Notes under the pieces: model-generated
What the model was told of the DNA's origin: nothing
The model's database searches: none
What the model saw: only the letters and a program-made list of their open reading frames with translations
Part shown: positions 16,335 to 43,221 of the stretch, in pieces
How positions within the stretch are numbered: position 1 is the first letter of the stretch
How the letters are laid out: each line of letters starts with the position of its first letter
Program-made: the position numbers and the translations under genes
Assembly (NCBI GenBank): GCA_030748735.1
Contig: JASMLK010000067.1
Span: 161 to 64,160, forward strand
Direction of reading: 5' to 3'
Length of the DNA stretch: 64,000 bases
Source: Myxococcota bacterium
Lineage (GTDB): Bacteria > Myxococcota_A > UBA9160 > UBA4427

Positions 16335-16346
16335 TAGTGTGCCCAC

Positions 16347-17566: not shown

Positions 17567-17661
17567 ACGATCCTCCCCTGCGTGGCACACCTATGCACCG
17601 CGAGTCGACTCGAGTCGAACGAACACGGCTCGACGAGCACCCGCCCAAGGAGCCAAGACAC

Positions 17662-18330: not shown

Positions 18331-18393
18331 CGATCGTTTCGCGAAGGCGCCCGTAGAACCGTCGGCATGGTGTGCCGACCCAAAGGAGGAGCC

Positions 18394-25351: not shown

Positions 25352-27205
25352 TCAGGAAGTCGCACTCGGAGGCGAGGGGGCGACCCTGGTGGGCTTCACG
25401 TCGCGCACCCGGGGGCCGCTCGAATCCGAAAGCGAAGCCACCTCGAAGCCTCGCCGTTCGAGCGGTTCGAGAAAGCTGCGAATCTCACCGCGCGGGTCGG
25501 GGCGACAGATCAGCACCGTGTCGGCTTCGAGGGTTTCGATCGCTTCGGGGGCAATCGTGTAGAGCCCCCACAGCCGCTCACCCTGGAGCAGGCTCACCGA
25601 TTCCGCGATCGCAACGAGGTTGGCGTTCGCGAGGTCGGTGCACTTGAAGAGCTGCGAAGTTTCTTCGCCTGCGCCGTAGAGTACGACGCGGCGGTGCTCG
25701 CGATTCCAGCGTGCAACGAGTTCGCGGACTCGTTGGATCATCGCTCCACGCTCGAATGCAGCGCGCTCGCGATCGACCGCCGAAGTCGTCGAGCCCCGCG
25801 CCACGTCGCCATCGCCATACAACGTGACGACTTCGATCCCCATGCCTTCGAGATAGACGAGGTGAGCGGCGATCTCATCCTGATTCGCGGCGGAAGAGAT
25901 CAGCACGACGTCAGGCCGAAGACTCGGGATCTCGCTCGGCGCGACCACTTCCAGACCCCACTGCCGCTCACCCTGCAGGCCGGGAGAACGGTCGGCAATC
26001 CCGACGACGTGGGCATCGCGAAGCGAAGTCAGCTTGAAGAGCGCAACGGTGTGCTCGCCAGCCCCATAGACCAGGACACGCTTCCGGTCGCGCCTCCATT
26101 CATCCACCAGCGAAGCGATCTTCGGTCGCAGATATTCCGGCGTGTAATCCGCCACGTACTTCTGCCAGGTCGCCGGCCGGGAGAAGTGCGGACGATTGCG
26201 CATGCGCCCGCTGCTCCGTGCGCGTTCGCGCTTGCGGCGCATGTACTCGGCTACGGGTTCCTGTAGAAGCGCGCGCCGCGTTGGAGTCCATTCGTCGGGC
26301 TCGGCGATGAACGCCTGTGCGGCGTCATCGCCGAAGTGCATGAACGCCGCGCTGCGCACGAAGTGGGGAACGAGGTCGCTGTTGCATTCGCTTTCGAGCA
26401 GTCGCGCGATGCGGCGGATCTTTTCCTGCTGCCCGCGACGGTCGGCCTGGCGCTTCAACGCATAGGAGGTGAAGTCGACTCGCTTGGCATGACACGGACC
26501 CGGCACGTAGTAGAGACCGTGGCGAAAGGCGACCGCGAGGCCGAGATACCAGTCCGACATCTCTTCGAGCTCGGGGATCAACCCGCCGGCGTCGAGCAGG
26601 GCGTCGCGACGGAAGATCGCACCGCGGGCTTCGAGGATGTCGCCATAGAGTGCGTCGGAAAGCGCGTCGGGTGGGTAGAGGCCGGCGTGTGGAGGCAGGG
26701 ATGGCGTGCGCTCGAGAATCTCCCGCCCCTGCGTCACGGTGACGAAGTCGCCGTAGGAAAGACCGGCCTCGCGATTGGCTTCGAGGGCGGCCATGTGGTG
26801 CTCGAAGAAGCCGGGTAGCACGAAGTCGTCCGCAGAAAGTCCGTAGACGTACTCGCCCCGCGCCTCGGCGAAACCCCTGTTGGTCGCCAATGGCGTGCCC
26901 TGGTTGTGTGGGCTGCGAATCACGCGAACGCTTGGGTGGGTGCGTGCGTAGCGTTCGACTTCGGCCGCGCCGTCGTCCGTCGACGCGTCGTCGACGACCA
27001 CGACTTCGTCCGGCGGTCGGCTCTGACGCAAGACGGATTCGATGGCCGTGAGTACGACGTCCGCGTGGTTGTAGAGCGGAATCACCACTGAAAGCGTTGC
27101 GCGCAATGGGTTGGGGTTGCTCTCCACGGGCCCTCGTGCGTCTACTTGAGCAGCGTCGTGATGTAACGCGAGAGCCCGACGCTCGTTACGGGCTCGCGGT
27201 TGCAA
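25352..27205 (-). CDS. family 2 glycosyltransferase fused to two small Rossmann-like (PglD_N / C-methyltransferase-C-like) modules
   Basis: GT-A signature SVVIPLYNH...VVVVDDASTDD...ADD. Two C-terminal repeats start RVLVYGAGEHT and RVVLYGAGEET. The ATG at 27205 overlaps the upstream gene by 64 nt; a GTG near 27145 is an alternative. Confidence 0.8.
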   Translation of the reverse strand: MQPRARNERRALALHHDAAQVDARGPVESNPNPLRATLSVVIPLYNHADVVLTAIESVLRQSRPPDEVVVVDDASTDDGAAEVERYARTHPSVRVIRSPHNQGTPLATNRGFAEARGEYVYGLSADDFVLPGFFEHHMAALEANREAGLSYGDFVTVTQGREILERTPSLPPHAGLYPPDALSDALYGDILEARGAIFRRDALLDAGGLIPELEEMSDWYLGLAVAFRHGLYYVPGPCHAKRVDFTSYALKRQADRRGQQEKIRRIARLLESECNSDLVPHFVRSAAFMHFGDDAAQAFIAEPDEWTPTRRALLQEPVAEYMRRKRERARSSGRMRNRPHFSRPATWQKYVADYTPEYLRPKIASLVDEWRRDRKRVLVYGAGEHTVALFKLTSLRDAHVVGIADRSPGLQGERQWGLEVVAPSEIPSLRPDVVLISSAANQDEIAAHLVYLEGMGIEVVTLYGDGDVARGSTTSAVDRERAAFERGAMIQRVRELVARWNREHRRVVLYGAGEETSQLFKCTDLANANLVAIAESVSLLQGERLWGLYTIAPEAIETLEADTVLICRPDPRGEIRSFLEPLERRGFEVASLSDSSGPRVRDVKPTRVAPSPPSATS

Positions 27206-28707
27206 ACGATCTGAACGTCGATCGCGGCCGCCGTACTTCCCACGAAGGCCGCGAGGTCGACGGGCATGCCACCGCCCACGCAGAGCGCCGCCAGCGACAA
27301 GAAGGCGTCGCCTGCACCGATGCGATCCACCACCCGCGTCGAGAGTGCCGGAACCTGAACCGTCTGGCCGCTTGGGCGATCGCTCATCCAGACGCCAGCC
27401 GTCCCCATCGTGACCGCAACGTTCTTTGCCGAGACACGCTCGCCCACGGCTTCGGCCACCTCTTCCACCGGGCTCGACCGGTCGTGGGCGGCCAGGCGAA
27501 GTTCGGGTTCGTTGAGCGAGACCAGGTCGGCGCGCTCATAGCGATTGATGACGTGGAAGCCGCGGTTGCCACTGTTGATCTGGGTATTGACCGCGAGGAA
27601 GCGCGAATGCTCGCAGAGCGTTTCGACCATGGGTTCGGAGATGAAGCCGTTGCCGAAGTCGGGCACCACGACGACGTCGTACGCCGGAAGATGGGTGGCC
27701 AGCCACTGCCGGGCGCGGTCTCCCATCTCGGGGTCGTGATCGTCACCGTCGCGTAAGTAGATTTCGAACAGGCGATTGAAGTCCGAATCGACGAAGCGGC
27801 GCTTCACGAGTGTGGGCGACGACGTCGAGCGGAAGAAGACCGGTTCGACCGTCTTGCCGAGACGGCCACGGATGAACGCTTCACTCCCGTCGGCTTCGCC
27901 GATCCCCGTTGCCAGGGTGACGTTGTCGCAGAACTCGCCGAGGTGGTTCGCGACTGCGATCGCGCCCCCTGCGAACTGCTCGGCCGACTGAAACGAAACG
28001 GCCAGACCGCCGCCCTTGCCCGGACGACCGAGCGGCGTGGTGTAGTGGTACTCGTCGATGATCGCATCGCCCACGACGAGCACCTTGAGCCCTCGCAGCG
28101 AACGCAACCGCTCGATGATGTAGCGGTCGCTGTACTGCACCGCGAAACCGCGCAGGTAGTCCCGGACGTCTTCGGGGAAGACATCGAAGTGTTCGTTCAA
28201 CAAACTCGACGAGCTGAAGGTGATCTCTTCGGTGAAGTGGAGTCGCCCGCCCAGGGCCGCGACGGCTTCGTGTTCGGGCCTGGGGATCTCACCTTCGCCG
28301 GCACCGCCAAGGCCCTCGACGTAGACGTCCGGTTCGACGGCGCGGATGACATCGACGCCGCTCGTTCCTTCGTGGATCCCGACCCCGTTCACGCATTCGA
28401 GCGCCGACAACGCCTCGGCGCGCAATGCTTCGCCGAAGACGGGGCGACCCGGTCCCTTGTCGACGAACTCGTCGGCGATCACCGAAACCAACAATACGTC
28501 TGCTTCGCGACGCGCGCGCTGCAGGTGACGGATGTGACCCATGTGGAGGAGATCGAAGGTGCCATGACAGAGCGCAACAGTGCGGCCCGCGTCCCGCGCT
28601 CGTTCTGCGGCACGCGCGAGTTGCTCGACACCCGAGACCGTCGCGCCTTCCATCCCTTCGCTCCTCGACGAAAGCGCGCCGCTGCGAACAGCGACGCGCA
28701 ACTTCAT
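27142..28707 (-). CDS. bifunctional cytidylyl/adenylyltransferase (N-terminal) and PfkB sugar kinase (C-terminal), reverse domain order to HldE
   Basis: HxGH motif CHGTFDLLHMGHIRHL at the N-terminus. PfkB motifs VLVVGDAIIDEY and DRIGAGDAF at the C-terminus. Confidence 0.8.
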   Translation of the reverse strand: MKLRVAVRSGALSSRSEGMEGATVSGVEQLARAAERARDAGRTVALCHGTFDLLHMGHIRHLQRARREADVLLVSVIADEFVDKGPGRPVFGEALRAEALSALECVNGVGIHEGTSGVDVIRAVEPDVYVEGLGGAGEGEIPRPEHEAVAALGGRLHFTEEITFSSSSLLNEHFDVFPEDVRDYLRGFAVQYSDRYIIERLRSLRGLKVLVVGDAIIDEYHYTTPLGRPGKGGGLAVSFQSAEQFAGGAIAVANHLGEFCDNVTLATGIGEADGSEAFIRGRLGKTVEPVFFRSTSSPTLVKRRFVDSDFNRLFEIYLRDGDDHDPEMGDRARQWLATHLPAYDVVVVPDFGNGFISEPMVETLCEHSRFLAVNTQINSGNRGFHVINRYERADLVSLNEPELRLAAHDRSSPVEEVAEAVGERVSAKNVAVTMGTAGVWMSDRPSGQTVQVPALSTRVVDRIGAGDAFLSLAALCVGGGMPVDLAAFVGSTAAAIDVQIVCNREPVTSVGLSRYITTLLK

Positions 28708-28962
28708 CGCAGAACATCGGAAGATTCCGTTCAGGCTTGAGCAGCATCGCGGGCAACCCGGCGTGTTTCATGAGGGAATCACGAGCCCCGTCGACGGCGA
28801 CGCACACCTTTCGCGTGCGAGAACAGCGGATGCAATCGAGATCGACTGCCGAGTCCGTCCCAAGTGGATTATTGCGCTCGTTGCGCTCAAGTCGGCCCGT
28901 GTGTTGCCGAGTTCTGAAGCACCTCGAATCCCACCCGCGCTCGTTCTGGCGATCGGCACCCA

Positions 28963-30168
28963 TTGAAAGAGAGCGACCCGCAGCGCGAACCTCGCGACAT
29001 CGAACCCGCGATCCGCACCTGGTCATGCCATCTATGCGGCGAGGGTTCGGTCATGCCGGTCCCGGGGTTCTCGCAACTGAAACGCGTCACCTCGGACTGC
29101 AGACCGTGGCGAAGCGGCGGGGCACTCGGCGTTTGTCGCACGTGCGCCGCAGTGGTGAAGCGCATCGACAAGGCGTGGGAGCGCGAAGTCGAGGAGATCT
29201 ATTCCGGCTACGACATCTTCCACCAGGCCGAAGGGAACGAACAGCTCGTCTACTCAGGTGACGAGGGGGACGCGAGCTATCGCTCGGACCCGCTGGTCGA
29301 GCGCATTGGCGGGCTACTCCCTCTCCCCGAGCGAGGTCGTCTGCTCGACATCGGTTGCGGCAAGGGAGCGTTTCTCGGAGCCTGGGCGCGAAGACGCCCG
29401 GGATGGACACTCGAGGGACACGAAGTCGAAGCGGATACGCGCGCGGTCGTCGAAGCGATCCCGGGCGTTGCGCGGATGCACAGCGGACGACTCGAAGCCA
29501 TCGAGGGCGAGTTCGACCTCGTGTCGATGGTGCACGTACTCGAACACATCGCGAACCCGATCGAAACCCTTCACCAGGTGCGAGAACGCGTGACGGACGA
29601 GGGCTGGTTGTTCGTGGAGGTCCCGCACTTCGTCGAACGGGCCTTCGACCTGCTCGTCGCCGACCACTGCAGCCACCTCACCCCCGAATCTCTCGACCGG
29701 GTGGTGGCACGGGCAGGCTTCGAAGCAGTGTCGGTCAGCGATTCCTGGAATGCGAAAGAGGTCAGCGGCGTATTTCGTCCGGTACCGGAAGGAAAGCCCA
29801 GGACGCTGGAGGCAGGGGGCTTTCCCGACGCGTTCTTCTCGGTTGCGCGCGCGTTGGCCTGGCTCGAAGGCACGCTGTCGCTTGCCGACCGCATGCGCAG
29901 CCGCACGAGCTTCGGTGTGTTCGGTACCTCGATCGGTGCGACGTGGCTCGCGAGTTCGGTCGCGCGTCCGGTCGACTTCTTCGTGGACGAAGACCCGAAC
30001 CGCCAGGGACGACAGCATCTCGGCCGACCGGTCCTCGCGCCGAGCGAAGTGCGGGAAGACTCGACCGTCTTCATGTGCCTGCCCCACTCACAGGCGAGTC
30101 ATGTGAGTGAGCGGCTTACACCACCGAAGAACGCCTGGAAGCCCCTGCTACCACCGGCGCCGCTCTAG
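28963..30168 (+). CDS. class I SAM-dependent methyltransferase with N-terminal Cys4 zinc ribbon and C-terminal Rossmann-like module (sugar C-methyltransferase-like layout)
   Basis: CHLCGEG...CRTCAA, SAM motif LLDIGCGKGAF, and a C-terminal FGVFGTSIGATWL...FFVDEDPNRQGRQHLGRPV module. Confidence 0.8.
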   Translation: MKESDPQREPRDIEPAIRTWSCHLCGEGSVMPVPGFSQLKRVTSDCRPWRSGGALGVCRTCAAVVKRIDKAWEREVEEIYSGYDIFHQAEGNEQLVYSGDEGDASYRSDPLVERIGGLLPLPERGRLLDIGCGKGAFLGAWARRRPGWTLEGHEVEADTRAVVEAIPGVARMHSGRLEAIEGEFDLVSMVHVLEHIANPIETLHQVRERVTDEGWLFVEVPHFVERAFDLLVADHCSHLTPESLDRVVARAGFEAVSVSDSWNAKEVSGVFRPVPEGKPRTLEAGGFPDAFFSVARALAWLEGTLSLADRMRSRTSFGVFGTSIGATWLASSVARPVDFFVDEDPNRQGRQHLGRPVLAPSEVREDSTVFMCLPHSQASHVSERLTPPKNAWKPLLPPAPL

Positions 30169-31712
30169 CGTTCTATCGAGCCGAGCTTCGAGAGCTTTGC
30201 GCGGACGTGGCGCTGCAGATCTGCGGGTGTCGTGGGTGGGCGGATCAGACACTGAGCGCATTCGGCCGGCAGGTTGCGCCCGGTAAGAAGCTTCTTGCGA
30301 AGATCGCGGTAGGACTTCTGGTTCAACACCCGAGCGAGGCCCGTCTTGGCTGATAGCTGGCCCATCACCTCACCTCGCTGGCAGCACGAATAGACTTCGC
30401 CTTTCGGGTCGGTGTAGGTCTGGGTCCAGGGCGAGTCGCATAGACGCGTGAGCCCTTCGGCCAGGGTGTCGCCCGCCTGGTCGGCCATCGCGAAAGATCC
30501 CTGAATACCCTGACGCTTGACCCGCGCACCTTCGCTACCCCCACTGCGCCCCCGTGTGTGGAGATAGAGCTCACGCGCGTCGAGATAGCGCTCGACTCCA
30601 GCAGCCACGAGTCCCTTCTCGATCTCGTCGTAGGCGCTCGAACAGACGAGGATGACGTCGCGCTTCGAAGTCGAACGCGTGCCACGCTCGCGCATGTAGT
30701 CCTCGAAGGCGATCACCTGCGCCCCGTCCACTTCACCCCCTCGGCTACTGTCGAGAAAGGCCGCGAAGTCGAGGCCGTCGCGGGGCTGGATCTGCTGCGC
30801 GATGTAGCGGCCGGGTTCACCGCTGCCGTAGACGTAGATGCGATCTTCACTCGATAGATCGTCGATGCTCGCGAGGTAGTGCCCGTTGTCGAGCACGCGT
30901 GTTCGACCGGTGATGTCGACGACTCGGCGCATGATGCGACCGTGGTCCTGGATCTTGAGCGCAACACCGAGCGACTTCGCGAGCGCGAGCGCACGCTCGA
31001 TCTCTTCGGCCGCCTTCAGGAAGTCGGCTTCGGCGAGATCACAGACGTGAAGCGATTCTCCATTCGCACCATCGAAATAGCCCACCGAGTTGAAGTTCAC
31101 CTGCTTGATGCTGCAGCTCGCCGCCATCGCGACGAACTCACGCAGACCGAACACGACCTCACGAGTGAGGACACCGGTCCAGATCATTCGCGGTACTGGC
31201 CTCCCGGCCACGAGGGCCGCGGCCTGGATACGCTGGCAGTCGTAGACAATGGTGCGGACATCGACGCTCTTGCGCACGCGCCGCAGGGTCGCCTGGTCGA
31301 CCGAGTCGATGCTCACCTGGATCTCTTCGAAGCGAGAAAGGACGTCGAATTCGCGCTCGCTGAGAACACGCGAGAAGTTCGAAACGATGGTGAGCGCGAC
31401 CCCGCGATCCATCAGCCTTTCGCAGACGTCTTCCCAGCCTGCGACCATGGTGGTCTCGCCGTAGTAGCCGATGCTCGCGTGCTTTACGCCGTTGCGGTCG
31501 ATGTAGCCGAGGATTTCGTCGAGCTGCCAGTCGGCGGTCTCGGCGTGGAAGCCGTCTTCGTGCGAACCTTGCGGACAGTAGACGCAGCGCAGGTTGCAGC
31601 GGTTGGTGAAGTTGAACTCGATGCTCTCGACCGGGCCTTCGAGCCGGAGTAGCGGTTCGAGGGCGTCGCGTTTCGTCGGACGCGTCGGGAGGTCAAGGCT
31701 GGGTTGCGACAT
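30165..31712 (-). CDS. radical SAM protein with internal Rossmann-like module and Cys-rich (SPASM-like) C-terminus
   Basis: CNLRCVYC (CxxxCxxC), module RIYVYGSGEPGRY, and C-terminal CDSPW...SCCQRG...ECAQC. Start set at the MSQPSL ATG. Confidence 0.8.
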   Translation of the reverse strand: MSQPSLDLPTRPTKRDALEPLLRLEGPVESIEFNFTNRCNLRCVYCPQGSHEDGFHAETADWQLDEILGYIDRNGVKHASIGYYGETTMVAGWEDVCERLMDRGVALTIVSNFSRVLSEREFDVLSRFEEIQVSIDSVDQATLRRVRKSVDVRTIVYDCQRIQAAALVAGRPVPRMIWTGVLTREVVFGLREFVAMAASCSIKQVNFNSVGYFDGANGESLHVCDLAEADFLKAAEEIERALALAKSLGVALKIQDHGRIMRRVVDITGRTRVLDNGHYLASIDDLSSEDRIYVYGSGEPGRYIAQQIQPRDGLDFAAFLDSSRGGEVDGAQVIAFEDYMRERGTRSTSKRDVILVCSSAYDEIEKGLVAAGVERYLDARELYLHTRGRSGGSEGARVKRQGIQGSFAMADQAGDTLAEGLTRLCDSPWTQTYTDPKGEVYSCCQRGEVMGQLSAKTGLARVLNQKSYRDLRKKLLTGRNLPAECAQCLIRPPTTPADLQRHVRAKLSKLGSIER

Positions 31713-32793
31713 GCGGTCGGTCTCCGGTGCGGGTCGCTGCGGGCGGCTTCTCGAGCGCTCGGTAGTCGCGTTGTATGCATGCGAGCACACGGGCGCTTTC
31801 GCGCTCGCACTGCTGGAAGCGGGCTTCCGCGGCGCTGTCGAGTGGGCCTGCATGGAGGCGGATCGGGAGCTCCACGTATTCACGATGAAGGGCGTCGGTC
31901 GCTCGGCGCATCCAGGCCGCGATTCGCTTCGTTCCCGATTCGCGATTCGGGGTCACGAGGTGGGCGCGGCTCTCGAGTGTATTCGTCATCTCGCAGGCCG
32001 CAATCTCGTCGCTGTCACGTACGACGTGGATATCGCTTCGGTTTGCCACTGCGGCGGCGACGAAGCGGCCGTCGATCGTTTCGGGTATCGCGGTGTCCCA
32101 GTTCGTGGGACGAACCACGAGCGGATGCAGGTGGAAGGCGCGTACGAGCATCTCTTGCTTGCCTGCCCGCCAATAGAGTTGTGAGGGCCAACTCGACGTC
32201 CGGTCCTCCCGCCACAGGAGGTTTTCGCTGTAGGGGTGGAGGTTGTCGAGCATGCAGGCCATCAGATCGCGATGGCTGATCGAAAGCGACGCGTCGTCGC
32301 CCTGTTCGGTGTAGTTGGAAAGCTCGCCGAGGAAGGCCGACTTGCTCGCACGGGGCGAGGCCATCATGACCGCACGGGCGCCTTGTTTCACGATCTCGTG
32401 CATTCGCGCGAAGCTGCCATCGCTCCAGATGGCGTCGGGGGAGAGCACGACCAGGGCTTCGTCCCGCTCGCGCGCAATGCGGATGGCCCGCTGATGGCAG
32501 GCACTCAGCACTTCGTAGGGGCTGCTCGCGTTGGCGATCGACTCGGAGCCGATGTCGTGAAAGATGACGCGCGCGAAGGTCTCGAGGGTCGAGAATGCGG
32601 GCGTAGCGCGCAGCATGCTCTGCGATGCATGGGTGGCGTAGATGTGGAAGGTGACTTCCGCGTCTTCGGCGAGTGCAGGCAGATTGCCAGGTGACAGATT
32701 CGTGGGCAGCGTGACGTCTGCCATGAGTCGCGTGAAGGCACCGCCATAGACGACGCTCACGAAGCCGTATCGAATACGTCCTGCTTCTCGCAC
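31693..32793 (-). CDS. hypothetical protein (possibly glycosyltransferase-like)
   Basis: 366-aa ORF with high GC3 in operon context. No motif I can name. Confidence 0.6.
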   Translation of the reverse strand: MREAGRIRYGFVSVVYGGAFTRLMADVTLPTNLSPGNLPALAEDAEVTFHIYATHASQSMLRATPAFSTLETFARVIFHDIGSESIANASSPYEVLSACHQRAIRIARERDEALVVLSPDAIWSDGSFARMHEIVKQGARAVMMASPRASKSAFLGELSNYTEQGDDASLSISHRDLMACMLDNLHPYSENLLWREDRTSSWPSQLYWRAGKQEMLVRAFHLHPLVVRPTNWDTAIPETIDGRFVAAAVANRSDIHVVRDSDEIAACEMTNTLESRAHLVTPNRESGTKRIAAWMRRATDALHREYVELPIRLHAGPLDSAAEARFQQCERESARVLACIQRDYRALEKPPAATRTGDRPHVATQP

Positions 32794-33048
32794 GTGATCT
32801 CCGAATCGCGGGCAGTCTGCTCACACACACCCGCGTGCAACAGACATGCAGCAAGGCATCTCGAATCGGAAACACGCCGGAAGCGCTTTAGCGCTATTTG
32901 CGCAGCATTCCGCTCCTGCGGGACCTCGGCGCACGCGAAGAAACGAAGCTCGAATCGCGAGTTCCGTTCGATTGTGCTCATCTGTTGCTCAAGCCGCACC
33001 GCAACCTTCCGATCCTATGCGACAGCAGCCGTATAAGGGACGAGCCAG

Positions 33049-34749
33049 ATGGGTGTCGCAGCACGCTATTGGGATTTCTATGACCGCTATGTGGTCACCG
33101 TTCGCCGCGATCCCGAGTATCCCGTCAACCGCTACTACGCCCACCTTCTCGACCCCTTTCTCACCAAGTGGGCCCATGACTTCGGCCTTTCGCCGAATGC
33201 GGTGACGACACTCGGCTTGTTCGCCGGGTTGGGCTGCGCTGTGGCGCTGTTGAATGGATCTTTTCTCGCTGCAGCGGCCCTGCTGCAACTCCATCACCTG
33301 CTCGACGGCGCGGACGGGAACCTCGCGCGGCTAACGGACCGGTGTACCGAGAGCGGTGCTCGCTACGACCAGTGGAGCGATCGCACGACGCGCATTGCAG
33401 TCTTCGGCGCGCTCGCCTGGGCGGCTCCGGTTTCGAGCACCTGGGCGCTGGCCTTCCTCACCATTCTCGTTCTCGACCACATCGTGGTTCACGCGTTCAT
33501 TCTGCCCTTCATGTCGACCGTCAGCTTGAAGCGCGCGCGCTGGAAGGCGTGGTTTCTCGATCGTGGGCTGATCCCGGGCTTCGACCACTTCACCCTGTTC
33601 TTTCTCGTCAGCGCCTGCGCGGTGGTCGGGCGACTCGATCTCGCCATCTATTTTGGCACCAGTTTGAAGGCCCTCGATGTTGGCTACCGGCTGTGGGAGT
33701 GCTTGAAGTCGGCACCGCGATTCGAAGACCTCGAGGAAATCAATCGCACCGCGAAGCCCGTTGACTTCTGGACCGTCGACTTCGACTACTGGTTTTCGAC
33801 TCGCCTGGTATCGCTGGTTCGAAGCGGGCCCATCACCCCCGACCACCTCACCTACGCTTCGTTTTCGAGTGGCCTCCTGGGCGCAACCGTCCTGCTGCTG
33901 GGACCCGCTCAGTGGAGCACGCTGGTCGTCGCGGCGCTGCTGTTCCAGACGGCCTACATCCTCGATTGCGCGGACGGACAGCTCGCGCGGGTACGGGAAG
34001 AGTACTCGCGCCATGGCTGGCGTCTGGATCTCTACAGCGACCGCATCACCGAGACCGTGATTCTCTTGAGCACGACCGCGTACGTGGCGCGAGAGAACGC
34101 GGCGCTCTGGGGGCTGGGCTTCGCGACGCTCGGGGCCACGACATTGCTCCAGTACGCGCGCATTCACGAGTTGATGAATGCCGCGTCGTTCAACGCGCGT
34201 GTGCCCGAAGACTTCGACGCCACGGGCCACTCGCCGCAGTCCGCTCTGCGTGAGCCACTGGCGCGCTTCGAAGCGCGGCGACGAAAGTTCCGCCTTGGCT
34301 TCTTGAACGTGGGCAACTTCTACTGCTTGAACTTCCTGTGCTTCGTGGCCGGCGCACCAACGGCGTTCCTGGTGGCGCTTCTGGTGCTCGCTCTCGCAGC
34401 GACCGTCTATCTCGTCTGCCAGAGCACGGTTCGCCAAGACGAACTCTTGCGGGGCCTCGCACAGGTCGAGCAGGCGGGGCACAGCGCGGTGCTCTTCGGT
34501 GCCGGTAAGGGGGCGGCGCAGTTCATGACCAGTTTCCAGAACCGGGGAATCCAACTCGCCTGCGTGTGTGATAACAACAGCGCACGTTGGGGCGACCGCT
34601 TCTTCGGAGTCCCGATCGAAGACCCGAGCACGATCGCACGTGACGCTGGCGGGGTGACGGTGTTCATCGCATCCGAATGGGCGGGCGAGATCCGCTCGCA
34701 GCTCGTCGGCTACGGCATTCCCGACGAGCACATCACTTCGCTCTACTGA
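33049..34749 (+). CDS. tandem CDP-alcohol phosphatidyltransferase-domain membrane protein with C-terminal Rossmann-like module
   Basis: Two copies of the DG(x)2AR(x)n G(x)3D(x)3D signature (DGADGNLARL...GARYDQWSDR and DCADGQLARV...GWRLDLYSDR), many TM helices, and a C-terminal AVLFGAGKGAAQF module. Confidence 0.8.
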   Translation: MGVAARYWDFYDRYVVTVRRDPEYPVNRYYAHLLDPFLTKWAHDFGLSPNAVTTLGLFAGLGCAVALLNGSFLAAAALLQLHHLLDGADGNLARLTDRCTESGARYDQWSDRTTRIAVFGALAWAAPVSSTWALAFLTILVLDHIVVHAFILPFMSTVSLKRARWKAWFLDRGLIPGFDHFTLFFLVSACAVVGRLDLAIYFGTSLKALDVGYRLWECLKSAPRFEDLEEINRTAKPVDFWTVDFDYWFSTRLVSLVRSGPITPDHLTYASFSSGLLGATVLLLGPAQWSTLVVAALLFQTAYILDCADGQLARVREEYSRHGWRLDLYSDRITETVILLSTTAYVARENAALWGLGFATLGATTLLQYARIHELMNAASFNARVPEDFDATGHSPQSALREPLARFEARRRKFRLGFLNVGNFYCLNFLCFVAGAPTAFLVALLVLALAATVYLVCQSTVRQDELLRGLAQVEQAGHSAVLFGAGKGAAQFMTSFQNRGIQLACVCDNNSARWGDRFFGVPIEDPSTIARDAGGVTVFIASEWAGEIRSQLVGYGIPDEHITSLY

Positions 34750-34779
34750 AAGCGCCGTCGGTCGGGCTCACAGCCAGAG

Positions 34780-35871
34780 TCAAGAGATGGCAGCGTGGGG
34801 GGATGCGTCGCCAACACGCTTCTGCCTCGCCGAGAACGCGGAAACGAAGCGGTGGTATTCGCGCTCGAGTTCTTCGTTGCTCGAGATGTCGAGCACGGTG
34901 AAGCGGTCGCCCCGGATGCGGCGTGCTGCGTTCATCAACGACGCGAAGTCGTGGGTCGCCCCGACGAGGCGCATGAAGTCCACCTGCAAGCCCAGGGTGC
35001 GGACCAGCGACCACAACGAGCGATCGCCTCGGTCGTGGAGCCAGACCACGAACGGAGCGATCGAACCGACCAGCAGCCCGTGCGCGAAGCGCCCGGGGCG
35101 TGCGCGGTTGATCGCGTGGGCGATCAAGTGCTCCGCTCCACTACAGGGTCGACTGTCACCGCTGATGTACATCGCGAGGCCCGAAAGCACGATCGCGTCG
35201 ATGTAGCGCTCGAAGAAGATGTCGTCTCGCAGGTTCGGGGGTGCACCCAGAACGTTCTGCACGGCACTGCGAGACATGATCCTCGCAAGCGCGTTTGGCG
35301 TTGCGCGCCCGCGCTCGATCGCGAGATCCCAGTCCAGCACTGCTGCTCGGTTCGAGAGCACGTCTCCGATCCCACTCACCAGGGCGGCGTGGGGTGCGCG
35401 TTCGAGCACACCTCGATCGATCAGCGTTGCGAGCGGGGGAGTCGTGGAGTGGCTCGCCATCTGGTCGTCGTCGCCACGCAAGATGGCGATCGGCGAAGCG
35501 ATCCCGTCGTTCGAAATGATCGTCGGCACAGCGAGATAGGGCGCACCGAGTCTGCAGGCGTGGTACTTCGCGAGATCGAGAACGCACCCGCCCCCGACAC
35601 CGACCACAAGTACGTCACTGGCATCACCTTCGTTGCTTTCGGCCAGGCTGCGATGCTGGGCGAGTGTGTTGTCGATGTCGTCCAACACCTCGACACGACG
35701 CCCCCGCACACGGCTGGCCAGCACCAGCGCCACTTCTTTCGACCACGTCTGCCCCGTGATGACCCGCACCCGAGAAACCTCGAGCCCCAAACGCACGCAC
35801 ACCGCGTCGAAGTCGAGCGTATCGATGCAGACGGTTTCGAGGGCAAACGGGAAGCTCGTCGCTCGCATCAA
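34780..35871 (-). CDS. glycerol-1-phosphate dehydrogenase-like (AraM/EgsA, iron-ADH/DHQS superfamily) enzyme
   Basis: GVGGGCVLDLAK, PTIISNDGIASP, GIGDVLS, SGAEHLIAH and HGLLVG match the G1PDH motif pattern as I recall it. Confidence 0.6.
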   Translation of the reverse strand: MMRATSFPFALETVCIDTLDFDAVCVRLGLEVSRVRVITGQTWSKEVALVLASRVRGRRVEVLDDIDNTLAQHRSLAESNEGDASDVLVVGVGGGCVLDLAKYHACRLGAPYLAVPTIISNDGIASPIAILRGDDDQMASHSTTPPLATLIDRGVLERAPHAALVSGIGDVLSNRAAVLDWDLAIERGRATPNALARIMSRSAVQNVLGAPPNLRDDIFFERYIDAIVLSGLAMYISGDSRPCSGAEHLIAHAINRARPGRFAHGLLVGSIAPFVVWLHDRGDRSLWSLVRTLGLQVDFMRLVGATHDFASLMNAARRIRGDRFTVLDISSNEELEREYHRFVSAFSARQKRVGDASPHAAIS

Positions 35872-36416
35872 GGGACCTCGGAACGGATGCGGTCGAGGAT
35901 CGCGCTCGTGCTGACCCCCTCGGTATAGGGAAGGAAGCGCAGCTCGATCTCGTGGCGTTCGAGGAAGCGGGGCGTCACGCGGATCTGTTCCATGTAGGAA
36001 TCCGCGGCCCAGTCGTCGCCGTGAACCACGATGTCGACATCGTGCTCCAGCATGGCGCGACGGTTGTCGTAGTCACCGATCACGAAGGCGTGGTCGACGC
36101 AGCGAAGCGCGCTCACGATCGCGAGGCGGTCGTCCTCGTTGTGAATCGGCCGGCGCTTGTAGGACGACACCATGTCGTCGCCGTTGATCGCCACCACGAG
36201 CCGATCGCCACATGCGCGTGCACGCTCGAGGAAGGCGAGGTGACCGCGGTGAAAGAGGTCGAAGACGCCGATCACATAGACGGTCGTTTCGGCTGCTGGT
36301 CGTGCGCGTGTATCGCGCGCAGGCCGAGCCTCGGTTCGCCGCCCCGGCGTTCCGCTCGTTCCCGCTCGCCCCGCGTCCACGACGCCATCCATCGGCACAC
36401 CCGCTCGGTTCATCAT
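35868..36416 (-). CDS. TagD-like glycerol-phosphate cytidylyltransferase
   Basis: VIGVFDLFHRGHLAFLERA (HxGH) and a RCVDHAFV region. The N-terminal 40 or so aa are low-complexity, so the start is uncertain. Confidence 0.75.
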   Translation of the reverse strand: MMNRAGVPMDGVVDAGRAGTSGTPGRRTEARPARDTRARPAAETTVYVIGVFDLFHRGHLAFLERARACGDRLVVAINGDDMVSSYKRRPIHNEDDRLAIVSALRCVDHAFVIGDYDNRRAMLEHDVDIVVHGDDWAADSYMEQIRVTPRFLERHEIELRFLPYTEGVSTSAILDRIRSEVP

Positions 36417-36422
36417 TCGCCG

Positions 36423-37493
36423 CTACACGAACCCGAGGTTGTCACGGTCAGCCTCGAGATAGTCGAGCAGGAGCCGGTTCTTGGGGTTCGCGACACAATG
36501 ATTGTTGCAGTCGACGGAGGGGTTGATCGCGAAGAAGCGCTCCTTGTTCTCGTACCAGAAATCCTTGAAGCGCTGCTGCTTGATCGAGCCGAGGCAGCCA
36601 TTGTCGAGGTTGTAGGCCTTGTCCTGGCAGGCGTACACGTTCAGGTCGGCCCCGATCACCATCAGCATCTGGAGATAAGGGCACCAGCTGTAGTCCTTCT
36701 CGAATTTGTTCTCGAGATAGTGGTACGCGTCGTTCACTTCGAAGTTCTCGTCTTCGAAGTCTTCCTTCGCCTTCTGGATCTCGGCCTTCGCGGCGGAGTA
36801 GAACTCCTCGTGATAGCGGTTCGACTCAGCACCGTCGTTGCTCGTGATACAGGGCGACATCTTGACGCTCGCCACACCGATGTCTCGCATCCGCTTCGTG
36901 AAGTCGTAGATGTGCGGGGCGTTGTTCTTGTCGATGATGTAGCTGACACCCAACACGCAGCGACCGCCGAGCTTCTGGAACGTCTCCATGTTGCCGATCA
37001 CCCGGGCGAATTCCGTCTGCTTCACGCCGCGATACCGGGCGTAGCTCTGAGCGTCCCACCCATCGATCGAAACGCGTAGCCAGGTGGCATACTCGGAGAA
37101 CACTTCGGCGACTTCCCCCGTGAGGCGCGCGCCGTTCGTGAGAGACGCAAAGGACATGCGGCTCGCCGCCAGAGCCTTTGCGGCCTGAAGGAGGTGCTTG
37201 TAGTGGAAGGGATCGCCGCCTCCACTGAACGTCACTGCACGCACGCCCATCTCGTCGAGGTCGTCGATGATCTCGAGCATCTTTTCGAGGGGAATCGAGT
37301 CGCGGGTCACCATGTCCTGGCCGAGCTGCAGATCGTCGGCCTTGTAGGCGCAGTACCAGCACGAATGCGCGCACACGTTCGTGGGCTTGATGCGCACGTG
37401 GACGGGCGGGAGAATTTCGGAGTTCTCGCGCGGCAGCGAGTCGATCTTCTCCTTGTAGTGGAACGCTTTCAGCTTCGTGTACTTGAGACCCAT
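36423..37493 (-). CDS. radical SAM protein
   Basis: CAHSCWYC (CxxxCxxC) and GGGDP. Start set at the MGLKYT ATG. Confidence 0.8.
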   Translation of the reverse strand: MGLKYTKLKAFHYKEKIDSLPRENSEILPPVHVRIKPTNVCAHSCWYCAYKADDLQLGQDMVTRDSIPLEKMLEIIDDLDEMGVRAVTFSGGGDPFHYKHLLQAAKALAASRMSFASLTNGARLTGEVAEVFSEYATWLRVSIDGWDAQSYARYRGVKQTEFARVIGNMETFQKLGGRCVLGVSYIIDKNNAPHIYDFTKRMRDIGVASVKMSPCITSNDGAESNRYHEEFYSAAKAEIQKAKEDFEDENFEVNDAYHYLENKFEKDYSWCPYLQMLMVIGADLNVYACQDKAYNLDNGCLGSIKQQRFKDFWYENKERFFAINPSVDCNNHCVANPKNRLLLDYLEADRDNLGFV

Positions 37494-37554
37494 GATGGTT
37501 TCCTCGTGCTCGAACGTGTGGTCAGGCTGGCGATCGAAAAGCAGGCTTCGAACG

Positions 37555-38157
37555 TCAGTCCTCGAAGTAGATGAACTCGTAGTCGCCCGTGTAGCCGAAG
37601 GTGTCAAAGGCGAACCGCCACTCTTCGGGCCGCAGGAACGATTCGCAGGTGAGCGCCCAACACTGCAGGTTGAAGAGCTCGGCCTCATCGCGATAACTCT
37701 CGACCAGGACGAACTTCTGCTTGCCTACGCGTTCGATTTCGCCGAGCGCGGACGAAAGTTCGGGAAGGGTGAGGTTGTGCAGCGTGCCGACGCTGATCAC
37801 CAGATCGAAGGCGTCGTCTACGAAGGGGTAGGGGTCCTGGGCGCGTTGCAGGAAGCACTTCGAGCGGATTTCGACGGGCACCTCTTCGAGCGCGTGCTCG
37901 GAGACGTCGCATCCCACGACCTCCGCGTCTTCGAGCAACTTGTCGAGTTCGTACAGCAGGTGCGCCTTGCCACATCCCATGTCGAGAATGCGCGCGCCGC
38001 GTTGCGGCAAGGCGTATTCCTCGATGATCCGTTCGGCGACGGGCTTCCAGCGTCCGTCGTAGCGATAGCCCCCATAGCCGAAGCGACGGTCGCCATCCCA
38101 ATAGTCGAAGCCGTATTCGCGCGCGACCTTCATGCACGCAACCTTGTCGTCGTTCAT
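37555..38157 (-). CDS. class I SAM-dependent methyltransferase
   Basis: ARILDMGCGKAHLL. Start chosen at the ATG forming an ATGA overlap with the transketolase C-subunit stop; longer starts at 38223 and 38283 are possible. Confidence 0.75.
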   Translation of the reverse strand: MNDDKVACMKVAREYGFDYWDGDRRFGYGGYRYDGRWKPVAERIIEEYALPQRGARILDMGCGKAHLLYELDKLLEDAEVVGCDVSEHALEEVPVEIRSKCFLQRAQDPYPFVDDAFDLVISVGTLHNLTLPELSSALGEIERVGKQKFVLVESYRDEAELFNLQCWALTCESFLRPEEWRFAFDTFGYTGDYEFIYFED

Positions 38158-40061: not shown

Positions 40062-41159
40062 TCAACTCCGGGATTCGGCGGCATGGGGAAAGCGTTGGAC
40101 GGATGCGATGCCCGTTTCGAGCATCTGCCTGGCCTGATCGAGCTGGTCCTCGAGGAGGCTCTCGTCGGGGCCAAGGAGACAACGTGCGTGGTCGCGCCTT
40201 GCGCGATGTTCCGCGACGAACTCGTTCAGCAGAATCGTCGACCACTTGAGCGCGTGAAGGGGAAATACGATCGGGACGCGCCATGCGATGTCGTCACCAC
40301 ACGAATGTCGACTGCACATCTCGCCGAAGAAGCGGGCTCGAAACGCGTCATCGAGATCGAAGCCCGGATGCAGCAGGAAGTCGCTCACCAGCTTTGCGGG
40401 ATCGTCCCAGCCGAAGTGCTCGAAATCGAGAAAGGCGATCGAGCCGTCGAGGCTTCGGCGCGCGTTGTGAAAGCCGAAGTCCGATGGACTCAGCGTGGCA
40501 GTTCGCTCGCCGAGCGTTGCCCCGCACGTCTCACCGCGTAGGGCCATCAGGTCCTGTGCCCGTTCGATCATCGAATCGACGCCCGGCTCCAGCTCCGCTT
40601 CGAGAAACTCGCGAAGGCGCGCGTGTACGGGCGAGATCACGGGGTCTGCGGCGAGACGAAGGCCGCCGAGCCGGCGGCGCAGGTGTTCGAAGGCCGCTTC
40701 TACCGAGAGGCACGCCTCGGAAGCGTGTCCGAGCGCCCTGCTCGCGGGCTCGTGCTTGCAGCGATCGAGCTCGACCAGGAAGTCCACCGCCACATCGATG
40801 TCGGCCTCGACGATGCCGTCACGCGAGAGCGGAAAGCCCTCGACGTAGCGGAGCACCGAGTAGCCCCCACCCGGATCGGTAAGAACCGGCTCGGGAATCG
40901 CGCGGATCCCATGCCGCCACATGAAGCGAAGTGCGGCGAACTCGCGACCCCGACGTTCATCGCGTGAGTCGTCGGCCCCTTCGGGATAGATCTTTGCGAC
41001 GTAGCTCCCACCACCCGCACACTCCAGGCGATAGACACGCGCGTTGCGACCGCCGCGAAGCGGCTCGAGAGACACCACCCCACCGTCGCCAATGCGCGAA
41101 AGCCCCGGTGAGAGAAGCGCGTAGTCGTACTCGATCGTCGAAGGCGCCGCGGAACTCAT
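40062..41159 (-). CDS. aminoglycoside/choline-kinase-like phosphotransferase (APH family)
   Basis: Brenner-like SPSDFGFHN and DFEHFGWDD motifs. ATGA overlap with the upstream gene. Confidence 0.75.
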   Translation of the reverse strand: MSSAAPSTIEYDYALLSPGLSRIGDGGVVSLEPLRGGRNARVYRLECAGGGSYVAKIYPEGADDSRDERRGREFAALRFMWRHGIRAIPEPVLTDPGGGYSVLRYVEGFPLSRDGIVEADIDVAVDFLVELDRCKHEPASRALGHASEACLSVEAAFEHLRRRLGGLRLAADPVISPVHARLREFLEAELEPGVDSMIERAQDLMALRGETCGATLGERTATLSPSDFGFHNARRSLDGSIAFLDFEHFGWDDPAKLVSDFLLHPGFDLDDAFRARFFGEMCSRHSCGDDIAWRVPIVFPLHALKWSTILLNEFVAEHRARRDHARCLLGPDESLLEDQLDQARQMLETGIASVQRFPHAAESRS

Positions 41160-42184
41160 GTCACTGCGAGCTCCTGCATTCGACGGATGTTGTAGTAGCG
41201 CGTCGCGTCCATGGGGTCGGGGACCTGGCCGGCCTCGAAGGCGTCGACGAGGCTCTTCACCGCATCTTCGACGGTTCGCTTCGCCTCGAAGCCGAGTACG
41301 TCGCGGATCTTCTGCGAGTTGATGTGGTACGAACGATCGTCGTCGCTCGGGACGCGTTCGATCTCGATTGCCGGATCGTCTACGACCCGGCGCACGAGCT
41401 CCGCAATCTCGTCGACCGGCAGGTTCTGGTAGCCGGCGTTGAAGGCTTCGCCGTCGATCTTGTCGCCGGGGGCTTCGAGGAGCGCCAGGTAGGTGTCTAC
41501 CATGTCGTCGATGTGGATGTTGGGCCGCAGCTGCCCGCCACCGAAGATCTTGATGCGACGATTCGCGATCGCATGGGCGGTGAGGATGTTGACCACCACA
41601 TCGAGGCGCAGACGCGGTGCGTAGCCACACACCGTGGCGGGCCGCAGAATGACGCGCTCCATTGCGCGCGCACCTGCGTGGTCGAGAAGCATGTGCTCGC
41701 AGTCGAGCTTGAAACGCGAATAGTCGGTCAGCGGCAGCGGGTTGGCGTCTTCGCGAACATCCGGTCGTTCTTGAACACCGTAGATGCTCGACGAACTCGC
41801 GTATACGAAGCGGCGCACGTCCGCCGCGACCGCTGCATCGAGTAGCGGCGTGAAGGCGTCCCGGTTGATAGACGTACCGAGCTGCGGGGCGAGGTCGAAA
41901 CTCGGATCGTTCGAAATACAGGCGAGGTGGAGCACCGCATCCTGGCCCTCGAGTTCCTTGCCGAGCCCTTCGGCGTTGCGGATGTCGAGTTCCACGAGCG
42001 AGAGGTTCGGATGACTTCTGACGCTCTCGAGCACTTCACGTCCGTACCAGAAGAGATCCACCACCTTGACCCGGTAGCCCTCCTGCAAGAGGCGCGGCAC
42101 GAGGGCGCTGCCCACGTAGCCGCCACCACCGGTGATCAGGACACGCTCGAGGCCATTGGGATTCGAACAGCTGGTGTCGCTCAT
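41156..42184 (-). CDS. NAD-dependent epimerase/dehydratase (SDR)
   Basis: VLITGGGGYVGSAL and YxxxK-like YSRFK. Confidence 0.85.
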   Translation of the reverse strand: MSDTSCSNPNGLERVLITGGGGYVGSALVPRLLQEGYRVKVVDLFWYGREVLESVRSHPNLSLVELDIRNAEGLGKELEGQDAVLHLACISNDPSFDLAPQLGTSINRDAFTPLLDAAVAADVRRFVYASSSSIYGVQERPDVREDANPLPLTDYSRFKLDCEHMLLDHAGARAMERVILRPATVCGYAPRLRLDVVVNILTAHAIANRRIKIFGGGQLRPNIHIDDMVDTYLALLEAPGDKIDGEAFNAGYQNLPVDEIAELVRRVVDDPAIEIERVPSDDDRSYHINSQKIRDVLGFEAKRTVEDAVKSLVDAFEAGQVPDPMDATRYYNIRRMQELAVT

Positions 42185-43221
42185 TGCGTAGAGGTCTCCT
42201 GGGCAGCGAACTCCGGGTCGGTGGCTCGCGCACGCGCTTCTTCGGCGTACTGCAGCTGCGTCCAGAGTTCGGGAATGGTGTTCGCGTGACTGCCGCGCAC
42301 GTAGTGTCCGCGCCCGCCGTCGGCGACCGAGCGGATCAACAAGGTCTTCAACGGGCGGAAGTAGTACGCCGGCTCGTCGGGCGAAGGTTCGACGGAGTGC
42401 GGCTGTGGAACCGGCATCAAGTCGCAGACCAGTGAGTCGAAGTCGGCGATGCGTCCACCCGCCTGGTGGGCGACGTTACGCGCCATCGCGAGCGCCTTCA
42501 GAAAGACTTCCGGGGCCATGACGGCACAACCGAACGTCCCGACGACGCCACCTTCGAGGTTCTCGACCACCGAGGCGAAACGAAGGAAGTCGTGGTAGCT
42601 CGCGGCTCCCCACGCGGCCCCGTCGCAATTCGGGTGCTCGTAGACGATGTCGTAGCCGATGCCCACGTGGACGGTGACCGGAATGCCGAGGCGGTACGCA
42701 GCCGCGAGCAAGCTCGCTTCCCTCCTCGGAAAATCCCCTTCGGCGATCAGCTGCCCCGCCGTTTCGCCGAGCCCCGCGTTACGGCTCGCGGCAAGCTTGG
42801 CGATCTCGTTGATCTCACCCGTCTCACGCCAGAGTCCGAATTGACCACTTCGCAGATAGGTTTGAACGTCTTCGGTGGATGCGCCGGCGAGTGCGAATTC
42901 GTAGTCGTGGATCAGCCCCGCGCCGTTGAGCGCAATGCAGGAGACGAACCCCCGCTCCATCAAGTCGATCAGGTAGGCCTGAACACCAGCGCGAATCACA
43001 TGCCCGCCGAGCATCAGGATCACCGACGCCTCGCGAGCGCGAGCATCGAGCATTGCAGCGGCAACGTCGCGAAGCGCTGGCGTGCGCATCTCGACGGCGT
43101 CGAGCTTGCGCCTCCCGTCCAGGCCGAGCTTGTGTTCGCGTGCCGCGAGGGGAAGAACGCGCAAGCGCGAACGATCGAAGGGCGCAACACCCGGCTCGCG
43201 AAGTTTGGTCTGCGTTTCCAT
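42181..43221 (-). CDS. conserved hypothetical protein, possibly deoxyhypusine-synthase-like (DHS-like NAD-binding fold)
   Basis: 346-aa ORF. LMLGGHVIRAGVQAYLIDLMERGFVSCIALNGAGLIHD resembles the DHS family pattern from memory only. Confidence 0.6.
   Translation of the reverse strand: METQTKLREPGVAPFDRSRLRVLPLAAREHKLGLDGRRKLDAVEMRTPALRDVAAAMLDARAREASVILMLGGHVIRAGVQAYLIDLMERGFVSCIALNGAGLIHDYEFALAGASTEDVQTYLRSGQFGLWRETGEINEIAKLAASRNAGLGETAGQLIAEGDFPRREASLLAAAYRLGIPVTVHVGIGYDIVYEHPNCDGAAWGAASYHDFLRFASVVENLEGGVVGTFGCAVMAPEVFLKALAMARNVAHQAGGRIADFDSLVCDLMPVPQPHSVEPSPDEPAYYFRPLKTLLIRSVADGGRGHYVRGSHANTIPELWTQLQYAEEARARATDPEFAAQETSTQ

Follow-up and report, generated by a model that had tools for sequence, protein, structure and literature searches.

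Three adjacent genes located between positions 33,049 and 36,416 of a 64,000-nucleotide (nt) stretch of DNA from a Myxococcota bacterium (GenBank assembly GCA_030748735.1, contig JASMLK010000067.1), hereinafter the window, encode a membrane protein with two CDP (cytidine diphosphate)-alcohol phosphotransferase domains, a dehydrogenase of the sn-glycerol-1-phosphate dehydrogenase (G1PDH) family and a TagD-like cytidylyltransferase (hereinafter transferase, dehydrogenase and cytidylyltransferase, respectively). The original prediction, made from the sequence alone, assigned this trio to a bacterial glycan locus and proposed that it transfers glycerol phosphate to an alcohol acceptor. Considering the sequences, predicted structures, relatives and genomic contexts of these proteins, we see about an even chance that the trio is a module for phospho-alcohol, most likely glycerophosphate, decoration in a Maf/NeuB-type island of this flagellated marine bacterium, probably acting on flagellin. 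The genome carrying the window is denoted G000 and its sister genome from the same genus G103. The core features are the following.

33049-34749, plus strand: fused double class-I CDP-alcohol phosphotransferase, 566 amino acids (aa)
34780-35871, minus strand: glycerol-1-phosphate (G1P)-dehydrogenase-family (Fe-ADH_2) oxidoreductase, 363 aa, the last gene of a long minus-strand operon
35868-36416, minus strand: HxGH cytidylyltransferase of the TagD/ECT/CCT class, 182 aa
35866-35871, minus strand: overlap of the cytidylyltransferase stop and the dehydrogenase start (TTGATG), read from the sequence

All three open reading frames (ORFs) show coding-type GC content at third codon positions (GC3, 0.79-0.80). 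At the junction of the cytidylyltransferase and dehydrogenase genes, cccTTGATGcga, the TGA stop codon overlaps by 1 nt the ATG at 35868 or by 4 nt the TTG at 35871, either of which could be the start codon of the dehydrogenase; the coupling previously read as ATGA is really a TGATG or TTGA junction. In G103, the two genes are ~17 nt apart. The transferase gene indeed adjoins the dehydrogenase gene but, rather than being back-to-back as described originally, the two are convergent, with 30 nt between the stop codons. A promoter and terminator scan of positions 32600-36600 gave no signal above background.

Among the NCBIfam profiles, the dehydrogenase matches best the G1PDH model (NF002022, 174.7 bits, 2.5e-51), compared to 51 bits (9.5e-14) for glycerol dehydrogenase, and does not match any 3-dehydroquinate synthase (DHQS) model; the score against PF13685 is 85 bits (cut-off 28). 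The best matches in the PDB are 3ce9 (2.6e-37) and the G1PDHs of M. jannaschii (4e-32) and P. calidifontis (2e-30), whereas true glycerol dehydrogenases are retrieved with only ~1e-7 to 1e-11. The alignment shows that the metal ligands (D170, H248 and H264) and the GGG..D loop (G93-G95 and D99) are retained, and the motifs SNDGIASP, GD..SN..A..DW and SRP.SG.EHL align with those of M. jannaschii G1PDH. In a FastTree phylogeny of 131 homologs, the dehydrogenase and 14 close relatives form a clade of their own (n=15, support 100) next to a large group with members from Streptomyces and Micromonospora; this tree, which contains no named archaeal EgsA or AraM references, separates the clade from actinobacterial-type homologs only. 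Judging from the profiles and alignments, the dehydrogenase is a member of the G1PDH/AraM family and not a GldA or a DHQS. The G1PDH-like assignment made originally is upheld, in that the dehydrogenase does not group with DHQS-like cyclases or ordinary GldA, the outcome named originally as its refutation; a DHQS-like sugar cyclase was dropped as a candidate for want of such a profile match and an ordinary glycerol dehydrogenase on account of the much lower scores. The accompanying claim that such enzymes are rare in bacteria was overstated, given that EgsA/AraM homologs are listed across many bacterial phyla (PMC5059525).

As a member of this family, the dehydrogenase would reduce dihydroxyacetone phosphate (DHAP) with NAD(P)H to sn-G1P. 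It could instead use a different substrate, namely, a keto-phosphate of larger size, for instance, one made by a transketolase, leading to a CDP-alditol, or dihydroxyacetone, leading through glycerol and, by action of the kinase, glycerol-2-phosphate to CDP-2-glycerol; we consider this quite unlikely. In the pneumococcal Gtp1-3 pathway, CDP-2-glycerol is made according to the same logic, by a reductase, a phosphotransferase and a cytidylyltransferase. Of this pathway, PMC1391919 gives the gene names only. Compatible with a substrate of this kind are the sub-cut-off equivalog score of the dehydrogenase and its placement in a clade of its own with a long branch, the fact that only 60 of the 90 columns conserved across other homologs are kept whereas 30 differ, and the presence in the same operon of a split transketolase and an APH-type kinase that are kept in G103. 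Against this, the active site motifs listed above match those of the archaeal G1PDHs, and DHAP is the simplest substrate.

The cytidylyltransferase matches PF01467 (71.7 bits) and aligns over its full length with Bacillus subtilis TagD (1coz; 1.4e-18 to 5e-19), also matches human ECT (2.3e-25), and contains the motifs FHRGH, GDDW and TEGVSTS; accordingly, its original description as TagD-like stands in the sense of the TagD/ECT type, with a score below the TagD equivalog cut-off. In the proposed pathway, this divergent enzyme would convert G1P and CTP (cytidine triphosphate) to CDP-glycerol. The ORF opens with ~40 residues of low complexity, rich in Arg, Ala, Thr and Gly (36291-36416, minus strand), that are missing from the homologs in G103 and in metagenomes, and the true start may lie further downstream.

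The transferase consists of three parts.

residues ~1-225: transferase domain A
residues ~226-470: transferase domain B
residues ~475-566: C-terminal Rossmann-like module (C2185-like/PglD_N-like)

PF01066 matches the protein in two stretches, and each of the two transferase domains contains the full signature D-x2-DG-x2-AR-x8-G-x3-D-x3-D, as originally reported, starting with DGADGNLAR at about residue 86 and with DCADGQLAR at about residue 306; both signatures are invariant across 11 fused orthologs. The two halves share 30% identity and are encoded by separate genes in a Halanaerobiales metagenome-assembled genome (MAG; locus L018, see below) and in representatives P0136-P0149. By these sequence comparisons, the transferase is a fusion of two paralogs, A and B, that are separate genes elsewhere. 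An AlphaFold2 (AF2) model built on 11 sequences (pLDDT 77.8, pTM 0.61) consists of two helical bundles and an alpha/beta tail; a MAFFT alignment (A2), which set the B-type proteins partly onto half A, was not used for folding. The hydropathy profile and the AF2 helices fit approximately 6 + 6 helices, several of which in half B are weakly hydrophobic. Foldseek searches started with the model retrieved AF2299 first, followed by DIPPS and PIP synthases, and the top NCBIfam matches are the inositol-phosphate-accepting AIP synthase, PIP synthase and DIPPS. AF2299 and DIPPS are the nearest relatives by both sequence and fold; the score on the IPCT/DIPPS model NF041135 is 71 bits versus a cut-off of 580. 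One ortholog is annotated in public databases as 'phosphatidylglycerophosphate synthase'. Class-I CDP-alcohol phosphotransferases are homodimers with six transmembrane helices per protomer (PMC4634129). Given this homodimeric organization of the known members, the most likely consequence of the fusion is a fixed A-B heterodimer, a covalent pair with both catalytic signatures intact.

The C-terminal module of ~90 aa shows a weak match to Methyltransf_14, is covered in homologs by the precomputed domain PF22674 ('C2185-like N-terminal'), and retrieves Rex, the VioB N-terminal domain and 2g6t in Foldseek searches. It is common to other tailoring enzymes of the island, and its probable role is either to bind an acceptor that bears a nucleotide or to dock the enzyme to the machinery of glycosylation.

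The fused form of the transferase is confined to a few marine Myxococcota. A search of 5.8 billion clusters yielded 12 relatives besides the query, 10 of them full length, the named ones being Myxococcota MAGs, whereas an HMMER scan of 1.84 billion representatives detected a single full-length fused representative and many split relatives, with B-type proteins of 320-355 aa covering residues 225-566 and A-type proteins of 200-240 aa covering residues 1-225. Among 401 sampled genomes of the phylum, a full-length fused ortholog is present in G000 and G103 only, and the same holds for orthologs of the dehydrogenase. The respective contig of G103 is syntenic between the serS/selB and nuo/gpsA genes, with protein identities of 61% for the transferase, 56% for the dehydrogenase, 70% for the cytidylyltransferase and 83% for a radical SAM/SPASM enzyme; also kept are a methyltransferase, the split transketolase, the APH-type kinase, an epimerase and a GSU2086-family protein, as well as the Maf-like, GT1-like, SDR-ATP-grasp fusion and NeuB-like proteins. 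In other MAGs, the dehydrogenase and the transferase have consecutive accessions (MCP5042653/4 and MFT5442330/1) or are encoded on contigs of matching size (83011, 29552 and 10638). Taken together, at least six lineages have the two genes next to each other or on one contig, the contexts of the metagenomic orthologs having been deduced from such accessions and contig sizes and from genome and related-locus searches; given this linkage, the arrangement is not due to chance. The trio is a conserved functional unit within a glycan island, in agreement with the original assignment to a glycan locus.

The island extends from ~25.3 to 54.6 kb of the window and includes the following additional features.

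36423-37688, minus strand: radical SAM/SPASM enzyme (PF04055, 72.6 bits), directly upstream of the cytidylyltransferase gene
40062-41159, minus strand: APH/choline-kinase-type phosphotransferase (PF01636, 2e-9), in the same operon, 47% identical to its counterpart in G103
47858-54585: Maf/MptE-like, GT1-like, SDR-ATP-grasp fusion and NeuB-like context genes (Pfam and NCBIfam matches)

The Maf-like protein (PF01973, 129 bits), the GT1-like protein (PF13524), the SDR-ATP-grasp fusion (ATP-grasp families matched) and the NeuB-like synthase (PF03102, 178 bits) mark the island as a nonulosonate/flagellin-type glycan locus. The NeuB-like synthase lacks a SAF domain and scores below the cut-offs (156 versus 400 bits for NeuB, 151 versus 340 bits for PseI); the ATP-grasp half of the fusion is ~40% identical to the ATP-grasp protein that adjoins A-type transferases in pseudaminic acid (Pse) islands, and a partial PseD match was detected at the locus. 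The island also encodes GmhA-like and RmlD-HAD proteins, two nucleotidyltransferase-PfkB fusions, two radical SAM enzymes, several methyltransferases and the split transketolase, and elsewhere in the assembly there are five flagellin genes. The APH-type kinase is a possible supplier of a phospho-alcohol, as judged by its family. Its gene is part of a 522-aa ORF (40062-41630, minus strand) that overlaps the upstream epimerase gene by ~470 nt, with the kinase portion starting at ~41159 and running downward, and a paralogous second copy of the kinase is present in G103. Within the island, no protein is more conserved between G000 and G103 than the radical SAM/SPASM enzyme (83%), which exceeds even serS (79%). 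The GSU2086-family protein (42181-43221, minus strand; NCBIfam 'GSU2086 family', 356.7 bits, cut-off 250) shows a faint likeness to deoxyhypusine synthase, and a relative with 43% identity is encoded ~8 kb from a CDP-OH transferase gene in an Aminicenantes MAG (L084). The region 25352-32793, which encodes a GT2 fusion, a Methyltransf_23 protein, a twitch-type radical SAM protein and a 366-aa protein that were not found in the G103 island (C72), is a variable arm of the island next to selB; no GmhA-like match was detected in the G103 island either.

Given that most class-I CDP-alcohol phosphotransferases are lipid synthases and that an ortholog is publicly annotated as one ('phosphatidylglycerophosphate synthase'), it has to be considered whether the trio uses G1P to make an archaeal-type lipid or the head group of a membrane lipid. 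The original prediction already deemed an ether-lipid role unlikely on the ground that no GGGPS-type prenyltransferase was present, and this observation extends to the entire assembly: PF01884 (GGGPS/PcrB) was not found in the assembly, which is 94.8% complete, in a search with positive controls. An archaeal-type ether-lipid role was accordingly dropped. Moreover, seven other CDP-OH transferase loci in the assembly are able to cover lipid synthesis, the nearest relatives of the transferase are non-lipid enzymes, the context is a glycan island, and the distribution is very narrow (2 of the 401 genomes of the phylum), which makes any lipid role highly improbable compared to glycan decoration.

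Further evidence comes from loci where the A and B transferases are separate genes. A metagenome scan with the transferase protein as a single query produced no match, whereas an alignment-based rescan yielded 12 metagenomic loci with a single A-type transferase, 43-53% identical to residues 1-226. These and the Halanaerobiales locus are represented by the following examples.

L018 (Halanaerobiales MAG, JANWJZ010000014.1), 6132-8557: B-type transferase of 346 aa with the C-terminal module and A-type transferase of 218 aa
L103 island, 2252-18659: Maf, TagF-like glycerophosphotransferase, TagD, A-type transferase, ATP-grasp, HAD, Pse genes, TylF-like methyltransferase and FliD
L100 island, 1402-17418: Maf, TagF-like glycerophosphotransferase, MobA/IspD-like cytidylyltransferase, A-type transferase, ATP-grasp, HAD and Pse genes

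In L018, the A-type and B-type genes flank a gene for a MobA/IspD-like nucleotidyltransferase within a complete pseudaminic acid locus (PseB, PseC, PseG, PseF and PseI with the SAF domain) that also encodes an ATP-grasp enzyme, a HAD phosphatase and an Asn-synthase-like protein. In 10 of the 12 A-type loci, a cytidylyltransferase is encoded within ~2 kb of the transferase, and these neighbors belong to two unrelated folds, MobA/IspD-like (L098, L100 and L106) and TagD-like (L101-L105, L108 and L109); of the remaining two loci, L107 is a fragment of 1 kb and L099 is a Pse locus where a cytidylyltransferase was not detected. The loci usually continue with ATP-grasp, HAD phosphatase and Pse genes (PseB/C/F/G/I), and include Maf as well. 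With 195.6 bits on TIGR01518 (cut-off 165.4), the cytidylyltransferase of L103 qualifies as a true TagD equivalog, suggesting that CDP-glycerol is the likely donor for the A-type family there. Both the TagF-like and the TylF-like proteins of L103 carry the C2185-like N-terminal module. L103 and L100 each combine, within one island, two different kinds of CDP-alcohol-using transferases. Our literature search turned up no paper linking a CDP-alcohol phosphatidyltransferase with pseudaminic acid.

These contexts also bear on the possibility that, instead of decorating a glycan, the trio produces a soluble osmolyte with a phosphodiester bond, similar to the diglycerol phosphate or glycerophospho-inositol of Archaeoglobus and Aquifex. 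The closest characterized relatives of the transferase, DIPPS and AF2299, act on soluble substrates and not on lipids, and the glycerol moiety of CDP-glycerol is accommodated by AF2299 (PMC4634129); CDP-glycerol-dependent synthesis of glycerophosphoinositol and a cytidylyltransferase of A. fulgidus with a preference for Gro1P have been described (PMC8262930), and the host is marine. Against such a role, the trio is part of a conserved glycan island that also contains Maf-like, NeuB-like and glycosyltransferase genes, the split homologs are found inside Pse/flagellin islands near FliD, Maf and TagF-like enzymes, tailoring enzymes share the C-terminal module, and the general family scans of the genes of the locus detected no inositol-phosphate synthase (MIPS family). 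An osmolyte therefore appears improbable. Altogether, given the island context and the lack of GGGPS, both the osmolyte and the lipid roles are less likely than glycan decoration.

Under the glycan decoration scenario, following the production of CDP-glycerol by the dehydrogenase and the cytidylyltransferase, the fused membrane protein would act at the cytoplasmic face, using CDP-glycerol as the donor of glycerophosphate and a hydroxyl group of a soluble molecule as the acceptor, with the release of CMP (cytidine monophosphate). The candidate acceptors are a nucleotide-linked sugar, a nonulosonate-type intermediate or a protein-bound glycan. The substrate, the sn-1 stereochemistry and the acceptor are all inferred from sequence and context, and the most specific version of this scenario, in which a fused heterodimer installs sn-G1P from CDP-1-glycerol on a nonulosonate-type flagellin glycan, is proposed only tentatively and should be regarded as doubtful.

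Several observations weigh against this scenario. With 174.7 bits on NF002022, the dehydrogenase is far below the equivalog cut-off of 413, and its clade sits on a long stem in the tree of the 131 homologs. Similarly, the cytidylyltransferase scores 68.8 bits on the TagD model TIGR01518, far below the cut-off of 165.4, and compared to TagD-type relatives, has KQKK replaced by YKRR, Trp by Tyr and RTxxISTS by YTEGVSTS, and contains a 9-aa insert. The altered positions correspond to what we take to be the substrate contacts of TagD (K44/K46, W74 and R113), so that, together with the insert, they make a changed substrate possible; the same alterations would fit a switch of enantiomer, without proving it. 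The operon additionally encodes the APH-type kinase, the split transketolase, radical SAM enzyme and methyltransferases, so a different phospho-alcohol could be built. The ground for the heterodimer is the statement in the literature that family members are homodimers, and the acceptors that can be named are only candidates. Family scans of the locus detected no DegT, Polysacc_synt_2 or CTP_transf_3 proteins, that is, no PseB/C/G/F-type genes, implying that the glycan is not canonical pseudaminic acid, and there is no flagellar gene within the window itself. Finally, none of the 12 A-type metagenomic loci includes a G1PDH-like gene, which indicates that G1P is not intrinsic to this transferase family.

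Some of the same observations are accounted for if G1P is the acceptor rather than the donor. In this case, the cytidylyltransferase would activate another phospho-alcohol, such as one phosphorylated by the APH-type kinase and perhaps shaped by the transketolase, radical SAM and methyltransferase enzymes; one of the two transferase domains would couple the activated compound to G1P, and a HAD phosphatase would trim the product. In the reactions of PgsA, PIP synthase and DIPPS, a polyol phosphate attacks the CDP-alcohol, and the transferase finds its top NCBIfam matches precisely among inositol-phosphate-accepting enzymes (AIP synthase, PIP synthase and DIPPS). The APH-type kinase belongs to the same operon, HAD phosphatases are encoded beside the A-type transferases in Pse islands, with a HAD domain fused to the RmlD-like protein here, and the divergence of the cytidylyltransferase from TagD affects putative substrate positions. 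However, the dehydrogenase and cytidylyltransferase genes overlap, actinobacterial-type trios and the fusion protein P0128 (both discussed below) couple a G1PDH-like enzyme to a nucleotidyltransferase, and the true TagD in L103 adjoins an A-type transferase; with these points taken into account, we consider G1P as the acceptor unlikely and prefer the scenario in which G1P is activated and donated.

Glycerophosphate is usually attached to bacterial glycans by TagD/TagF-type enzymes, which involve the sn-3 enantiomer, or by transfer of the phosphatidylglycerol head group. If the preferred scenario is correct, there would be a third route of glycan decoration in which CDP-glycerol fed by a G1PDH is used by membrane transferases of the lipid synthase type to attach the 'archaeal' enantiomer. 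We know of no bench-tested version of a G1PDH-linked trio. Under the most specific version of the scenario, the transferase would be, to our knowledge, the first class-I CDP-alcohol phosphotransferase at work in the tailoring of protein glycans and also the first heteromer in its family. The route would also amount to a bacterial CDP-sn-1-glycerol pathway, confirmation of which would be noteworthy given that CDP-1-glycerol is held to be likely absent from bacteria (PMC8262930). Furthermore, the presence of the A/B pair beside a cytidylyltransferase in many Pse flagellin islands points to an unrecognized phosphodiester modification of flagellar sugars that would affect antigenicity and the properties of the filament, and the fused form offers a naturally occurring single chain in which the cooperation of two CDP-alcohol phosphotransferase protomers can be studied.

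Comparison with known systems reveals partial similarity to several of them. The dehydrogenase shares the family, the metal ligands and the signature motifs with archaeal EgsA and B. subtilis AraM, but differs from these in being below the equivalog cut-off, in forming a separate clade and in the lack of linkage to GGGPS/PcrB or ether-lipid genes. A parallel in gene content is the actinobacterial-type trio of NTP_transferase, G1PDH-like and CDP-OH transferase genes that we identified in six loci, from Micromonospora, three Streptomyces, an Actinomycetota MAG and an unclassified MAG. These trios follow the same three-step logic, often with two transferase paralogs and in envelope-glycan contexts (in the Actinomycetota MAG, TagA/WecG adjoins the trio; L041), and a natural fusion of NTP_transferase/MobA-like and G1PDH-like domains (P0128, an ENA metagenome protein of 590 aa) ties the formation of G1P directly to nucleotidyl activation. 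The differences are that the nucleotidyltransferase is of the NTP_transferase (LicC/IPCT-like) fold, the dehydrogenase belongs to another clade, and the transferases are separate genes, ~30% identical to those described here, located outside of a Maf/NeuB island.

In the TagD/TagF system, as in the window, a small HxGH cytidylyltransferase makes a CDP-alcohol for the attachment of glycerophosphate to a glycan, and related flagellin islands contain a true TagD equivalog together with a TagF-like enzyme; here, in contrast, a class-I membrane-embedded protein takes the place of the TagF fold, the cytidylyltransferase does not reach the TagD cut-off, and its linkage to a G1PDH-type enzyme instead of GpsA implies that the opposite enantiomer is used. 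IPCT/DIPPS and AF2299 of Archaeoglobus fulgidus, which operate in the di-myo-inositol phosphate, glycerophosphoinositol and diglycerol phosphate pathways, are likewise class-I enzymes physically coupled to a cytidylyltransferase and acting on soluble CDP-alcohol donors and acceptors; however, these are one-domain homodimers fused to a nucleotidyltransferase-like domain that make osmolytes, as opposed to the two unlike transferase domains with a Rossmann-like tail encoded within a glycan island.

Among flagellin glycosylation loci, the island of Geobacillus thermoglucosidans DSM 2542 includes a tagD-pgs pair for which phospholipid modification has been guessed (PMC5109656). This is likewise a TagD-type cytidylyltransferase adjoining a class-I transferase in a Pse-type flagellin island and is known from comparative genomics only, but, going by the published description, the transferase is single-domain and there is no G1PDH. 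In Clostridioides difficile, FtaABCD represents a modification with a CDP donor that is encoded in a flagellin glycosylation locus, whereby a CDP-activated small molecule is methylated and moved as a phosphodiester to a flagellin-linked sugar; it differs in that the donor is CDP-(N-methyl)threonine and FtaD is a TagF-like enzyme without the class-I signature (bioRxiv 10.64898/2026.02.12.704994). Thus, the three-step logic is already known from TagD/TagF and IPCT/DIPPS, and what sets the locus analyzed here apart is the TagD-derived cytidylyltransferase, the fused A-B pair of the flagellin/nonulosonate-island lineage and the Maf/NeuB-type setting.

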